The translations under genes and the position numbers were made by a program. This document shows positions 26,612 to 32,132 of a stretch of 64,000 nucleotides of DNA, piece by piece. The stretch is from Escherichia coli. GTDB lineage: Bacteria > Pseudomonadota > Gammaproteobacteria > Enterobacterales > Enterobacteriaceae. The stretch is taken from the NCBI RefSeq assembly GCF_016903815.1, contig NZ_CP069973.1; one strand, 5' to 3'. Each line of letters opens with the position of its first letter. Position 1 is the first letter of the stretch. The notes beneath the pieces are model-generated. The model was not told where the DNA came from. It saw only the letters and a list, made by a program, of their open reading frames with translations, and did not search any database.

Positions 26612-29044
26612 ATGAGTGTGATTGCGCAGGCAGGGGCGAAAGGTCGTCAACTGCATAAATTTGGTGGCAGTAGTCTGGCTGATGTGAAGTGTTATTTGCG
26701 TGTCGCGGGCATTATGGCGGAGTACTCTCAGCCTGACGATATGATGGTGGTTTCCGCCGCCGGTAGCACCACTAACCAGTTGATTAACTGGTTGAAACTA
26801 AGTCAGACCGATCGTCTCTCTGCGCATCAGGTTCAACAAACGCTGCGTCGCTATCAGTGCGATCTGATTAGCGGCCTGCTACCCGCCGAAGAAGCCGATA
26901 GCCTCATTAGTGCCTTTATCAGCGATCTTGAGCGCCTGGCGGCGCTGCTCGACAGCGGTATTAACGACGCGGTGTATGCGGAAGTGGTGGGCCACGGCGA
27001 AGTGTGGTCGGCGCGCCTGATGTCTGCGGTACTTAATCAACAAGGGCTGCCAGCGGCCTGGCTTGATGCTCGCGAGTTTTTACGCGCTGAACGCGCTGCG
27101 CAACCGCAGGTTGATGAAGGGCTTTCTTACCCGTTGCTGCAACAGCTACTGGTACAACATCCAGGCAAACGTCTGGTGGTGACCGGGTTTATCAGCCGTA
27201 ACAACGCCGGTGAAACGGTGCTGCTGGGGCGTAACGGTTCCGACTATTCCGCGACACAAATCGGTGCGCTGGCGGGAGTTTCCCGCGTAACCATCTGGAG
27301 CGACGTCGCCGGGGTATACAGCGCCGACCCGCGTAAAGTGAAAGATGCCTGCCTGCTGCCGTTGCTGCGTCTGGATGAGGCCAGCGAACTGGCGCGTCTG
27401 GCGGCTCCCGTTCTTCACGCCCGTACTTTACAGCCAGTTTCTGGCAGCGAAATCGACCTGCAACTGCGCTGTAGCTACACGCCGGATCAAGGTTCCACGC
27501 GCATTGAACGCGTGCTGGCCTCCGGTACTGGTGCGCGTATTGTCACCAGCCATGATGATGTCTGCTTGATTGAGTTTCAGGTGCCCGCCAGCCAGGATTT
27601 CAAACTGGCGCATAAAGAGATCGACCAGATCCTGAAACGTGCTCAGGTGCGCCCACTGGCGGTTGGCGTGCATAACGATCGCCAGTTGCTGCAATTTTGC
27701 TACACCTCAGAAGTGGCCGACAGTGCGCTGAAAATCCTCGACGAAGAGGGATTACCTGGCGAACTGCGCCTGCGTCAGGGGCTGGCGCTGGTGGCGATGG
27801 TTGGGGCGGGTGTCACCCGTAACCCGCTGCATTGCCACCGCTTCTGGCAGCAACTGAAAGGCCAGCCGGTCGAATTTACCTGGCAGTCCGATGACGGCAT
27901 CAGCCTGGTGGCAGTACTGCGCACCGGACCAACCGAAAGCCTGATTCAGGGGCTGCATCAGTCCGTCTTCCGCGCAGAAAAACGCATCGGCCTGGTATTG
28001 TTCGGCAAGGGCAATATCGGTTCCCGCTGGCTGGAACTGTTCGCCCGTGAGCAGAGCACGCTTTCGGCGCGTACCGGCTTTGAATTTGTGCTGGCAGGCG
28101 TGGTGGACAGCCGCCGCAGCCTGTTGAGCTATGACGGGCTGGACGCCAGCCGCGCGTTAGCCTTCTTCAACGATGAAGCGGTCGAGCAGGATGAAGAGTC
28201 GCTGTTCCTGTGGATGCGCGCCCATCCGTATGATGATTTAGTGGTGTTGGACGTTACCGCCAGCCAGCAGCTTGCTGATCAGTATCTCGATTTTGCCAGC
28301 CACGGTTTCCACGTCATCAGCGCCAACAAACTGGCGGGAGCGAGCGACAGCAATAAATATCGCCAGATCCACGACGCCTTCGAAAAAACCGGGCGTCACT
28401 GGCTGTACAACGCCACCGTCGGTGCGGGCTTGCCGATCAACCATACCGTGCGCGATCTGATCGACAGCGGCGATACTATTTTGTCGATCAGTGGGATCTT
28501 CTCCGGCACGCTCTCCTGGCTGTTCCTGCAATTCGACGGTAGCGTGCCGTTTACCGAGCTGGTGGATCAGGCGTGGCAGCAGGGCTTAACCGAGCCTGAT
28601 CCGCGTGATGACCTTTCCGGCAAAGACGTGATGCGCAAGCTGGTGATTCTGGCGCGTGAAGCGGGTTACGACATCGAACCAGATCAGGTGCGCGTGGAAT
28701 CGCTGGTGCCTGCCCATTGCGAAGGCGGTAGCATCGACCATTTCTTTGAAAACGGCGATGAACTTAACGAGCAGATGGTGCAACGACTGGAAGCGGCCCG
28801 CGAAATGGGGCTGGTGCTGCGCTATGTGGCGCGTTTCGATGCCAATGGCAAAGCGCGTGTGGGCGTGGAAGCGGTGCGTGAAGACCATCCGCTGGCATCA
28901 CTGCTGCCGTGCGATAACGTCTTTGCCATCGAAAGCCGCTGGTATCGCGATAACCCTCTGGTGATCCGTGGGCCTGGCGCGGGGCGCGACGTCACCGCAG
29001 GGGCGATTCAGTCGGATATTAACCGCCTGGCGCAGTTGTTGTAA
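26612..29044 (+). CDS. metL: bifunctional aspartokinase II / homoserine dehydrogenase II
   Basis: 810-aa ORF starting 2 nt after the metB stop; recognised as MetL. Confidence 0.96.
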   Translation: MSVIAQAGAKGRQLHKFGGSSLADVKCYLRVAGIMAEYSQPDDMMVVSAAGSTTNQLINWLKLSQTDRLSAHQVQQTLRRYQCDLISGLLPAEEADSLISAFISDLERLAALLDSGINDAVYAEVVGHGEVWSARLMSAVLNQQGLPAAWLDAREFLRAERAAQPQVDEGLSYPLLQQLLVQHPGKRLVVTGFISRNNAGETVLLGRNGSDYSATQIGALAGVSRVTIWSDVAGVYSADPRKVKDACLLPLLRLDEASELARLAAPVLHARTLQPVSGSEIDLQLRCSYTPDQGSTRIERVLASGTGARIVTSHDDVCLIEFQVPASQDFKLAHKEIDQILKRAQVRPLAVGVHNDRQLLQFCYTSEVADSALKILDEEGLPGELRLRQGLALVAMVGAGVTRNPLHCHRFWQQLKGQPVEFTWQSDDGISLVAVLRTGPTESLIQGLHQSVFRAEKRIGLVLFGKGNIGSRWLELFAREQSTLSARTGFEFVLAGVVDSRRSLLSYDGLDASRALAFFNDEAVEQDEESLFLWMRAHPYDDLVVLDVTASQQLADQYLDFASHGFHVISANKLAGASDSNKYRQIHDAFEKTGRHWLYNATVGAGLPINHTVRDLIDSGDTILSISGIFSGTLSWLFLQFDGSVPFTELVDQAWQQGLTEPDPRDDLSGKDVMRKLVILAREAGYDIEPDQVRVESLVPAHCEGGSIDHFFENGDELNEQMVQRLEAAREMGLVLRYVARFDANGKARVGVEAVREDHPLASLLPCDNVFAIESRWYRDNPLVIRGPGAGRDVTAGAIQSDINRLAQLL

Positions 29045-30138
29045 TCCTGAGCCAGAGAAAGCAGTATTTGCGTAACGCGCCCTGCGGAAAGCGGGGCGCT
29101 GTGAGTAAATACTGCTTGTTTATGTAGCCAGTCGATAAAATGTCTGCTGGTTGCTAAAGAGAGCATTTCTGCTTTGCTGTTATTTCCGCCCGTTAATGCA
29201 CATACCATTTTACGATTTTTGCCCTGAACCCAGAGTTGCCACTGATTTTTCCACCAGCCGTGATAAGTTGTTCCCTGAAAACGCCAGGGCATATTATCGG
29301 TATCGTCAGCTATTTCCTCTTCAATAAACCAAATCTCACCTTGCTGTTGGCGAAACAGATCAGCCCATGCCGTAATAATGGCACCTCTTAAAAAACACTC
29401 GTGTGAAATTACATGTGTTTTTACTGTAGGGAATAAAATATTCAGTACTCTGAAATGCCCGTGTGCAGTGATAACCGGACGCAGAATAACACCTTTAGCA
29501 TTGCGTTTGAGCGCTGCGCTGCCATATTGAATCTCATCAAACTGACTGCGGCGTAGAAATTGTGCTTCGCGCATATCAACGCGTTGTACAATATTACTCT
29601 CGTGTAACTCTGGTTCTGCATTCCCTCTGTATCGATAATGCAGACTTTCTCCAGCCTGATGCTGCGTGTAATTAGTAGAAAGATGAAGAATATTACCGCG
29701 AAGAGCATCAAAACTGATTAAAACATACAGTTTCTGCCCGCCGCTGGCTCCCTGAAATGGCACCAGAAGAGCAACCGTTTCGATTATTTCAGGAGGCGTT
29801 ATTTCTTTCTGATATTGTTTAGGTGTCCAGACTTTTTTGCAGTTACGACATTGAATGCGTTGCGACCCCTGTGGATTGTGGCCATAACAAATCGTCTTTG
29901 TGCCATAACATACCGGGCAGAAATGACCTTTCTCAGTTGCAAAAGTAGATAAGTGAACTGACAACCAGTCACGAAATTGCTGTTCGTCAAACAACGGCGG
30001 GTAACTTCCACATGCCCGACAGTGCAGTGCCGGATAACCCAGTCGATAGTCTGGCCAGCTGTAATCTGTCGATGTTGGTTGCCCTAAATTACGACAACCA
30101 AACGACTTGCAGGCATTAATCGTAAACAGAGTCGACAT
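29008..30138 (-). CDS. hypothetical protein with Cys-rich (putative zinc-ribbon) N-terminal region; not present at this locus in K-12 as I recall
   Basis: 376-aa ORF. N-terminal 110 aa contain four Cys pairs (C-x4-C, HC-x2-C, C-x2-C, C-x2-C). No family recognised. Region is more AT-rich than the flanking genes. The 3' end overlaps the metL 3' end by 37 nt. Confidence 0.55.
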   Translation of the reverse strand: MSTLFTINACKSFGCRNLGQPTSTDYSWPDYRLGYPALHCRACGSYPPLFDEQQFRDWLSVHLSTFATEKGHFCPVCYGTKTICYGHNPQGSQRIQCRNCKKVWTPKQYQKEITPPEIIETVALLVPFQGASGGQKLYVLISFDALRGNILHLSTNYTQHQAGESLHYRYRGNAEPELHESNIVQRVDMREAQFLRRSQFDEIQYGSAALKRNAKGVILRPVITAHGHFRVLNILFPTVKTHVISHECFLRGAIITAWADLFRQQQGEIWFIEEEIADDTDNMPWRFQGTTYHGWWKNQWQLWVQGKNRKMVCALTGGNNSKAEMLSLATSRHFIDWLHKQAVFTHSAPLSAGRVTQILLSLAQDYNNCARRLISD

Positions 30139-30270
30139 ATATCACCAACGATTTCACAAGGTCGTTGATTTTGTCCGGCAACTATCCCCTGCGGATGTGA
30201 TTACTCTCACATAAATAACTCTTTCAGAACGTAATGTAGCAATCCTTTAAATCACTGAAAGGGACTATTT

Positions 30271-31824
30271 ATGAAAATTAAAATACTTGCTGCGGGTATC
30301 GCATTAACATTGCCGTTCTGGGCTTGCGCCAAAGATGTCACCATCATTTATACCAACGACCTCCATGCGCATGTCGAGCCTTATAAAGTGCCGTGGATCG
30401 CTGATGGTAAACGGGATATTGGCGGCTGGGCAAATATCACTACGCTGGTTAAGCAAGAAAAAGCAAAAAATAAAGCGACATGGTTTTTTGATGCGGGTGA
30501 TTATTTTACCGGGCCATATATCAGCAGCCTGACCAAAGGTAAGGCTATTATCGATATTATGAATACTATGCCGTTTGATGCCGTCACGATAGGCAACCAT
30601 GAATTTGACCACGGCTGGGACAACACATTATTACAGTTGAGTCAGGCAAAATTCCCTATTGTGCAGGGCAATGTTTTTTATCAGAACAGCAGTAAATCAT
30701 TCTGGGATAAGCCATATACCATCATCGAAAAAGACGGTGTGAAAATAGGCGTTATAGGTTTGCACGGTGTATTTGCCTTTAATGACACGGTATCTGCGGC
30801 AACGCGAGTGGGGATTGAAGCGCGTGATGAAATTAAATGGCTACAACGTTATATCGATGAACTTAAAGGCAAGGTTGATTTGACCGTCGCCCTGATCCAT
30901 GAAGGTGTTCCGGCCCGCCAGTCCAGTATGGGAGGCACAGATGTGCGTCGCGCGCTGGATAAAGATATTCAGACGGCAAGTCAGGTGAAAGGGCTGGATA
31001 TTTTGATCACCGGACATGCGCATGTGGGTACGCCGGAACCGATTAAAGTCGGCAATACGCTCATCCTCTCCACTGACAGCGGCGGGATTGATGTGGGCAA
31101 ACTGGTTCTCGACTACAAAGAGAAGCCGCATGATTTTACGGTGAAAAACTTCGAGCTTAAAACCATTTACGCCGACGAGTGGAAGCCCGATCCGCAAACA
31201 AAACAGGTGATCGACGGCTGGAATAAAAAGCTTGATGAAGTGGTGCAACAAACGGTCGCGAAATCGCCGGTTGAATTAAAACGTGCCTATGGTGAATCGG
31301 CTTCCCTCGGGAACCTGGCGGCTGATGCTTTACTGGTAGCGGCGGGTAAAAACACCCAATTGGCGTTAACCAACTCTGGCGGCATTCGCAATGAGATCCC
31401 CGCAGGGGCGATTACGATGGGCGGCGTCATCAGTACCTTCCCGTTTCCCAACGAACTGGTGACGATGGATCTCACGGGTAAACAATTACGCAGTTTGATG
31501 GAACACGGCGCAAGTTTAAGTAATGGCGTTTTACAGGTATCGAAAGGCCTGGAAATGAAGTACGACAGCAGTAAGCCGGTTGGTCAGCGGGTAATCACGC
31601 TGACTCTGAATGGCAAACCGATTGAAGATGCGACGATTTACCACATTGCTACTCAGAGTTTCCTTGCTGATGGTGGAGATGGTTTTACCGCCTTTACCGA
31701 AGGGAAAGCGCGTAACACAACGGGCGGTTATTACGTTTATCACGCCGTGGTTGATTACTTCAAAGCGGGTAACACCATCACGGATGAACAGATCAACGGT
31801 ATGCGCGTGAAAGATATCAAGTAA
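30271..31824 (+). CDS. secreted 5'-nucleotidase / UDP-sugar hydrolase family metallophosphoesterase (UshA-like)
   Basis: 517-aa ORF with N-terminal signal peptide ([20 protein letters not shown]). Calcineurin-like phosphoesterase motifs ([27 protein letters not shown]) and C-terminal 5'-nucleotidase-type motifs ([19 protein letters not shown]). Divergent from the 376-aa ORF. Confidence 0.8.
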
Positions 31825-32132
31825 AAGTACGTATTGAGTTGATTCATCTGTTTGTTACCAGTTGATTTTGCAGATCCAGTATTCGGCCTACGCGAGGGCG
31901 CAGGCCGAATCAGATGCCTTAGCATCACCATCCGGTGGCAGGACGTTGTTTTTCGAATAAGCCCAGGTGTCGCTGTGTTGTCAGAATATCAGTCAAAACG
32001 TGCGAGGTGGATTGCGCTATAGAGAAATCTTTTATCGCCTCTAATTAAGATGAGTTTTTTTCAACTTCCCTGATTTTTCCTCACCATCATTGGTCATTTT
32101 TCGGTTGACGCCCTTTAGCTTTTCCTTCATCT

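Follow-up and report, generated by a model that had tools for sequence, protein, structure and literature searches.

Does a gene that ends inside its neighbour, after running through a long inverted repeat, still carry its own C-terminus, and which of the two genes does the repeat serve? These questions are raised by the meeting point of metL and a convergent 376-aa open reading frame (ORF) in a 64-kb stretch of Escherichia coli DNA (64,000 nt, hereafter the window, whose positions are used for all coordinates), where the gene order is metJ-metB-metL / 376-aa ORF / UshA-like 5'-nucleotidase / metF-katG. An earlier note on this DNA had placed the end of the ORF at 29008-29010, 37 nt inside metL, and had proposed that its native C-terminus was replaced, at an insertion junction, by read-through into backbone sequence that includes the metL transcription terminator. 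The coordinates are confirmed by the RefSeq annotation of an identical genome, which has both coding sequences (CDSs) with the same 37-nt overlap; the overlap of the two genes and the hairpin are both real. The comparisons reported here point to another history, in which only nine residues derive from the junction, and suggest that the stem-loop probably acts at the 3' end of the metBL transcript from within the coding sequence of the convergent neighbour.

The relatives of the 376-aa protein bear directly on its C-terminus. A search of a clustered protein database returned 253 of them at E <= 0.001, the named ones being all enterobacterial and labelled 'cytoplasmic protein'. In an alignment of 22 sequences, conservation extends through F344-T-H-S347-A-x-L-S351-A352-G-R-V355-T-Q357-I-L-L-S-L362-A-Q-D-Y366-N367, with Q341, S351, A352, L362 and Y366 invariant and F344, S347, V355, Q357 and N367 nearly so. 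Past N367 the tails of the family vary, with lengths of 3-35 residues and different sequences, and a BLASTP alignment with the homologue of B2-type E. coli (78% identity) ends at N367. The last ~36 codons of the ORF cross the hairpin; the alignment shows that the ~27 codons across it are native, conserved coding sequence and that only residues 368-376 are non-native. Replacement by read-through thus holds for the last nine residues, which are antisense to metL, and fails for the ~36-45 codons for which it had been proposed, residues 331-367 being conserved across Enterobacteriaceae. The earlier note had itself named what would speak against replacement, namely homologues with the same C-terminal region in another genomic context, and up to residue 367 such homologues exist in E. 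albertii, Enterobacter, Pluralibacter and others, away from metL. The NCARRLISD tail varies (R371S, R372L) only through changes that are synonymous in metL, R371S corresponding to third-position changes at metL R805 (29026), and is therefore a passive by-product.

The arms and inner hairpin described from the letters alone are borne out, far beyond chance. The two arms, agcagtattt (29060-29069) and aaatactgct (29107-29116), are complementary at every position, and a repeat search returned a single 27-nt arm pair (29059-29085 / 29091-29117, 78% complementary). In the composite structure, an outer/middle helix pairs 29057-29072 with 29104-29119 and an inner helix pairs 29077-29085 with 29091-29099, closing on the loop GGAAA (29086-29090). 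On the + strand, the 61 nt from 29058 to 29118 fold at -40.1 kcal/mol (z = -8.4), a value equalled by 0 of 200 dinucleotide shuffles, and constitute the most stable 61-nt fold among 31,970 segments covering both strands of the 64 kb (runner-up -34.7). Over 86 nt (29045-29130) the + strand reaches -41.1 kcal/mol and the - strand -31.6 (z -3.8). The onset of the stem-loop is 13 nt past the metL stop, its span 13-75 nt from that stop, and its distance to the 376-aa gene's own stop 50-110 nt. The window hairpin contains three wobble pairs, each of them G.U when read on the + strand. The common E. coli variant C29097T (A348T) converts a G-C pair into G.U on the + strand only, and the E. coli variants examined all fold at <= -32.8 kcal/mol on the + strand, against only -22 to -29 on the - strand. 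An Rfam scan of 28800-30400 (E<=1) gave nothing at the hairpin and one chance-level match elsewhere.

To place this junction among its relatives, a scan with one genome per species yielded 37 loci, to which loci fetched by protein identity were added, and 35 were classified by junction. Class A (7 loci, gap -7) comprises the window, two Pseudocitrobacter species, E. whittamii, further Escherichia and a 'Citrobacter' metagenome-assembled genome; the N367 codon overlaps the metL stop, the overlap is 37 nt and the tail reads NCA[RS][RL]LISD. Class B (6 loci, gap +7), found in three Klebsiella, Kosakonia and two Phytobacter, has YN followed by 7 nt and the metL stop, a 26-nt overlap and a tail xxLTAxAPGG read in the other metL antisense frame. 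REP-type (repetitive extragenic palindromic) palindromes separate the gene from metL in class C (10 loci, gaps of 46-112 nt; Citrobacter, Superficieibacter). The gene lies away from metL in class D (12 loci), that is in E. albertii and some E. coli (kdsA locus), B2 E. coli, Enterobacter, Pluralibacter, Silvania, Rahnella and Kluyvera.

The folds of the homologous 120 nt, compared on the metL-sense strand in the 35 loci, differ between these classes: the mean minimum free energy is -46.4 kcal/mol in class A (mean z -4.1), -45.6 in class B (mean z -2.6), -34.2 in class C (mean z -1.0) and -30.7 in class D (mean z +0.25), A+B differing from C+D with a Mann-Whitney p of ~4e-6 that carries no phylogenetic correction. 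As the alignments are ungapped over the hairpin, a single pairing model was scored at all loci. In A+B, 80.5% of the pair cells hold standard pairs (89.6% in the inner helix), a share that drops to 33-54% if the 3' partners are shifted by 1-3 columns, and double-sided changes occur at 31-85 (GC/CG), 50-66 (CG/GC), 53-63 (UG/UA/AU) and 29-87 (AU/GC); Klebsiella has the pairing register of class A with different sequences. In C+D, paired cells make up 48.7% (41.9% in the inner helix), no more than background, and the structure is lost at each of the 22 loci in which the gene and metL are not directly adjacent. The other arrangements each have a stem-loop of their own just past the metL stop: a perfect 13-bp stem with a U-run in B2 E. 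coli, REPs in Citrobacter, a hairpin with a U-rich run in C. braakii, and a small hairpin with a REP in K-12.

The structure could have been imposed by the protein, and this was addressed by recoding codons 338-363 synonymously 1000 times with the gene's own codon usage. The window recodings have a mean of -19.4 and a minimum of -36.6, the observed value being -40.8; none of the 1000 reaches it, and the structure is therefore not dictated by the peptide. At the other class A loci the observed energy is reached by 8-20 of 1000 recodings on the metL-sense strand and by 217-468 of 1000 on the gene-sense strand; the corresponding figures are 0-22 of 1000 for Klebsiella and 86-832 of 1000 for classes C and D.

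Comparison with other E. coli shows where the boundary lies. A K-12-type strain (C600) is collinear with the window through the metL TAA, unrelated from 29045 and similar again from ~32050, which puts the divergence at 29044/29045 and not at 29120-29150, where the island/backbone boundary had been suspected; G+C falls at 29045 from ~0.60 (0.60 in metL) to ~0.45. Because K-12 is unrelated from 29045, it lacks the hairpin, which thus is not K-12's metL terminator; of the earlier proposal there remains that the hairpin is plausibly a 3' structure of the metL transcript. The two-gene segment (>=80% query coverage) is present in 1837 of 5426 complete E. coli genomes and this junction with its hairpin (>=95% identity) in 1182 of the 5426, at one place each (median and maximum 1). 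The other ~655 genomes have the B2/ExPEC (extraintestinal pathogenic E. coli) form, metL-tsx-nucleotidase-nucleotidase-[374-aa gene]-nucleotidase-metF, an arrangement seen in strain MS20677 and described in the literature under the name GR31 (PMC12928451). Two matching places in this genome search were on plasmid-typed records, which may be mis-assigned replicons or captured chromosomal segments.

Two further observations concern individual E. coli loci. In the K-12-type metL-metF spacer (L002, 784-918), RefSeq places a minus-strand gene for a hypothetical protein of 44 aa, which partly overlaps the sequence, starting at ~32050, that K-12 and the window have in common just upstream of metF. 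In E. coli 2018-05-2CC (L053, NZ_AP027877.1 4383600-4385500), a deletion has taken the 5' parts of the 376-aa gene and of the nucleotidase, including the shared promoter region; the final 201 nt of the 376-aa gene are left, with hairpin and metL overlap intact, and malI comes next instead of metF.

The two-gene segment shows presence/absence polymorphism and an atypical composition, as an island would, but it does not behave as a newcomer at this site. Between metL and metF, the same two genes are found in Klebsiella, Kosakonia, Phytobacter, Citrobacter, Superficieibacter, Pseudocitrobacter and several Escherichia species, and since the 376-aa gene is convergent with metL in at least six genera, the junction is not that of a fresh insertion. 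The origin at an insertion junction is further contradicted by the older tail, which is also antisense metL, in the other frame. The 25-34 kb interval showed neither an integrase nor a tRNA or direct repeats among its ORFs. These distributions indicate that the 376-aa gene, with the 5'-nucleotidase divergent from it, has long been next to metL in enterobacteria and is not a recent insertion, and the K-12 state would most simply be a loss. A probably truncated remnant at the same locus was observed in Salmonella enterica subsp. arizonae (L042), where only residues 126-368 are matched, ~570 nt from metL.

Classes A and B differ by exactly 14 nt. The class B junction reads TA[TC]AA[CT] + 7 nt + TTACA[AG]CA[AG]C..., and that of class A TACAAC, then directly AACTGC. 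The ancestral junction would have had the 7-nt spacer followed by the antisense of the metL 3' end, with a tail ...LTAxAPGG and a 26-nt overlap. An Escherichia-type ancestor would then read TACAAC-NNNNNNN-T-TACAAC-AACTGC, the second TACAAC being the antisense of metL TTGTTGTAA, and slippage deletion of one TACAAC repeat together with the spacer (14 nt) would give the class A sequence TACAAC-AACTGC. Such a deletion would place the metL stop inside codons 365/366, shift the tail frame to NCARRLISD and extend the overlap to 37 nt. We infer this repeat-mediated mechanism from the geometry of the two junctions.

Copies away from metL retain traces of the older state. At the exact +7 offset, a fossil of the metL 3' end is recognizable with 36/54 identities in E. 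albertii and 37/54 in the second copy of E. coli SCPM-O-B-8794 (both at the kdsA locus), 30/54 in Pluralibacter, 27/54 in Silvania and 24-26/54 in the second copy of Citrobacter wls619, against a mean of ~14.5 (sd ~3, maximum 21-26) identities out of 54 at control offsets. A local Smith-Waterman search is significant only in the two Escherichia kdsA-locus copies, the fixed-offset test being the more sensitive, and neither test detected a metL fossil in Enterobacter, Rahnella, Kluyvera or B2 E. coli. From the fossils at the +7 offset it follows that the relocated copies go back to an ancestor that was next to metL and had the 7-nt spacer, and that the older tail was already antisense metL. The paralogous nucleotidase/Tsx clusters found elsewhere in Escherichia and relatives thus derive from the metL-adjacent locus. 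Three genomes were seen to hold two paralogous copies (E. coli SCPM-O-B-8794, L012/L019; Escherichia sp. MOD1-EC7003, L013/L038; Citrobacter sp. wls619, L029/L039), one beside metL and the other at another site, which in Escherichia is the kdsA side, accompanied by additional nucleotidases and Tsx. The split tblastn match of the second MOD1-EC7003 copy (L038) suggests that this copy is disrupted.

What the hairpin does can be approached from the layout of the junction. In the window, metL and the convergent 376-aa gene leave no intergenic DNA between them, and any stem-loop at the metB-metL 3' end must therefore lie in the neighbour's coding sequence. Such a stem-loop would be built by codon choice and variable residues in codons ~340-360; it would terminate or pause RNA polymerase arriving from metL and/or protect the 3' end of the metBL mRNA, would also curb antisense transcription into the 376-aa gene, and may work from both directions, as in the bidirectional terminators of convergent pairs. 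The position, strand preference and distribution of the structure accordingly suggest a metBL terminator, a pause site or a 3'-end protecting structure. We consider it probable, though well short of certain, that the stem-loop, lying within the convergent gene, terminates metBL transcripts or stabilises their 3' end, and that the history is that of an old neighbour and a 14-nt deletion. The fuller account has about an even chance of holding in all its parts: that the metBL stem-loop, on the antisense strand of a convergent CDS, is kept by selection on codon choice and variable residues, persists with compensatory changes in Escherichia/Pseudocitrobacter and in Klebsiella, decays in copies away from metL, and is accompanied by a tail overprinted on metL antisense in two frames and by metL fossils that mark the origin of the paralogues.

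Several observations weigh against assigning the hairpin to metBL. The U-tract is imperfect (6/9 T), being interrupted in the window (UGUUUAUGU), the K. pneumoniae counterpart having TTTTT (T5); a consensus terminator scan of the window left the stem-loop site unflagged, because a composite stem and an interrupted U-tract are outside the scan pattern, and flagged the equivalent K. pneumoniae site with its T5 run. Two of the three Kosakonia/Phytobacter class B loci are weakly structured (z -0.6 and -1.5), the Kosakonia hairpin being displaced toward the metL stop and Phytobacter little structured in the homologous region. Class A amounts essentially to a single clade, and Klebsiella to a second; few independent events therefore stand behind the link between structure and metL adjacency, a link whose p value takes no account of phylogeny. 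The pairing model, derived from a class A sequence, favours class A in the counts. Finally, a hairpin in its own coding region would impede transcription and translation of the 376-aa gene, which is a cost.

Could the hairpin instead serve the 376-aa gene itself, through mRNA stability, translation pausing or termination, or serve nothing, as a neutral by-product whose association with metL is a phylogenetic coincidence? The gene-sense strand does fold in the window (the -31.6 kcal/mol given above) and in Klebsiella, the independent lineages are few, and Pluralibacter keeps 8/9 inner pairs away from metL. This explanation nevertheless seems unlikely, given that the recodings free the structure from the peptide, that in class A besides the window the gene-sense fold is unremarkable and the metL-sense fold significant, that all wobble pairs favour the + strand, and that pairing falls to background across the 22 non-abutting loci, where the structure is lost; in addition, a terminator 50-80 nt ahead of the gene's own stop codon would give a non-stop mRNA. 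A function at the level of DNA, as a palindromic protein-binding site, a cruciform or recombination site, or the remnant of a REP-like mobile palindrome, might be suggested by a long imperfect palindrome beside a structurally variable junction and by the REPs that fill the equivalent intergenic space in Citrobacter. We regard it as highly improbable: the element occurs at one place per genome, is in frame in a conserved CDS without insertion relative to homologues, has no Rfam match, and is altered by substitutions that keep RNA-type G.U pairing on one strand, which would be meaningless for a DNA palindrome. A REP remnant in particular was rejected as the origin of the hairpin, which is single-copy and in frame.

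The least credible explanation is that of the earlier note, a foreign island inserted by metL whose gene lost its last ~36-45 native codons to backbone read-through containing a pre-existing metL terminator, with a boundary at ~29120-29150. The absence of 29045-~32050 from K-12-type strains, the lower G+C of this segment and the backbone origin (metL antisense) of the very last nine codons all agree with it. It is nonetheless almost certainly wrong, as the hairpin sequence is not in K-12, divergence starting already at 29045, as homologues, among them copies away from metL, show conservation of residues 331-367, as the gene adjoins metL in six or more genera, and as there is no indel between window and homologues across the hairpin. 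We retain the metBL terminator or stabiliser as the preferred explanation.

The metBL hairpin resembles several known systems without coinciding with any. It shares with Rho-independent terminators a stable G+C-rich stem-loop soon after a stop codon (within ~100 nt) followed by a U-rich stretch, and differs from them by internal loops in the stem, an interrupted U-tract and a location in antisense coding sequence. REP/BIME (bacterial interspersed mosaic element) palindromes are 3'-end mRNA stabilisers in E. coli; like them, the window has a stable palindrome of extragenic type shortly after the last gene of an operon, at a place where Citrobacter has real REP-like hairpins, but the window hairpin is inside a CDS, collinear with its homologues, without the REP consensus and at a single place in each of the 1182 genomes. 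With convergent 3' overlaps and overprinted C-termini it has in common a tail taken from the antisense of the neighbour's last codons that changes passively with the neighbour's synonymous substitutions; particular to this case are two antisense frames in different lineages and relocated copies that retain the metL-derived tail as a fossil.

Bidirectional terminators at convergent E. coli gene pairs (Ju et al. 2019, in the outline of that work given in bioRxiv 10.1101/2022.10.23.513370) are a further case. As outlined there, they too involve a convergent pair with a hairpin where the transcription units meet, here at 29008-29044, that folds on both strands, as the window hairpin does in RNA both ways, and is not a textbook intrinsic terminator. 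Relative to the same outline, the window differs in that the CDSs overlap, that the hairpin is wholly inside one partner's CDS and stronger on the metL-sense strand, and that it is known here from sequence alone; the gene-sense fold, which bears on bidirectionality, is not significant in the class A loci other than the window. With its neat evolutionary record, the hairpin adds an example to a kind already known, that of terminator-type hairpins at pairs of convergent genes that overlap.

A literature search on the metL-metF locus returned only the description of GR31 (metL..metF), a genomic region of ExPEC/APEC (avian pathogenic E. coli) strains, in ExPEC comparative genomics. The variable locus and the UshA-like nucleotidase family are common to GR31 and the window. 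The passages of PMC12928451 considered here list Tsx and three nucleotidase ORFs and say nothing of the 374/376-aa gene, its overlap or a hairpin. The window, by contrast, has the short two-gene form abutting metL. The features of the locus are collected in Table 1.

Table 1. Coordinates of the metL junction and neighbouring features in the window.
Feature	Position	Strand	Remark
metL, bifunctional aspartate kinase / homoserine dehydrogenase II, 810 aa	26612..29044	+	stop TAA 29042-29044; ORF list and RefSeq annotation of an identical genome
376-aa ORF, enterobacterial family, Cys-rich N-terminus	29008..30138	-	stop 29008-29010
Convergent CDS overlap, 37 nt	29008..29044		equal 37-nt overlap in Pseudocitrobacter, E. 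whittamii and other class A loci
Lineage-specific tail, codons 368-376 (NCARRLISD) and TGA stop	29008..29037	-	antisense of metL codons 800-809
Codons Y366-N367 (TACAAC), final conserved residues of the family	29038..29043	-	also antisense of metL L810 and part of the stop; presumed site of the 14-nt deletion
Segment missing from K-12-type E. coli	29045..32050		K-12 instead has ~0.2 kb of unrelated REP-containing sequence
Composite stem-loop, pairs symmetric about 29088	29057..29119	+	codons ~340-360 of the 376-aa ORF on the opposite strand
U-rich stretch TGTTTATGT, 6/9 T	29117..29125	+	immediately after the outer stem, read metL-sense
Intergenic region between 376-aa gene and nucleotidase, 132 nt	30139-30270		
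UshA-like periplasmic metallophosphatase / 5'-nucleotidase	30271..31824	+	divergent from the 376-aa gene

The function of the 376-aa protein is hinted at mainly by its partner. Sequence searches of Pfam, NCBIfam and the PDB gave nothing above threshold, only sub-threshold Zn-ribbon matches; the sole family signal is a sub-threshold match of residues 74-105 to an IS1/IS1595 Zn-binding domain (NF050000, 21.3 bits for a cut-off of 28), the transposase model NF033558 reaching 20.8 for a cut-off of 100 with only residues 74-122 matching. An IS1/IS1595-type transposase identity was discarded, these scores being below the curated cut-offs. An AlphaFold2 model built from the 22-sequence alignment was unusable, with a mean pLDDT (predicted local distance difference test) of 40.4. 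The nucleotidase is the divergent partner at 131-144 nt in essentially all enterobacterial loci, and in some genomes further nucleotidases and Tsx join the pair. This constant pairing with a secreted UshA-like nucleotidase, sometimes with more nucleotidases and Tsx, suggests a regulator of a nucleotide-scavenging module, a role that we offer as speculation.

Some further observations were made on the pair. The nucleotidase is much better conserved between genera than the 376-aa protein (87-99% against 58-94% amino-acid identity to the window, loci L005-L044). The only non-enterobacterial relatives found are from Motilimonas spp. (L045, L046), with 27% identity over residues 6-300 and no nucleotidase detected alongside. 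About 60 nt past the nucleotidase stop, at 31881-31910, there is an inverted repeat with 13-nt arms (ATTCGGCCTACGC / GCGCAGGCCGAAT, 92% complementary) that looks like a REP-type palindrome or a terminator for the nucleotidase gene.

At the level of annotation, this work brings a correction: the 376-aa gene is intact, no more than its last nine residues come from the junction, and the breakpoint relative to K-12 falls at the stop codon of metL. No major view of the field is changed. If the metBL assignment is true, the locus would offer a clean natural triple constraint, with a protein on one strand and an RNA structure and the end of a second protein on the other. It would also be a testable case of a regulatory RNA structure inside a neighbour's CDS, for which the loci with a 7-nt spacer, those with REPs between the genes and those elsewhere in the genome are natural controls. 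The case would be relevant to terminator prediction, as searches restricted to intergenic regions would miss such a hairpin, and to selection at synonymous sites.

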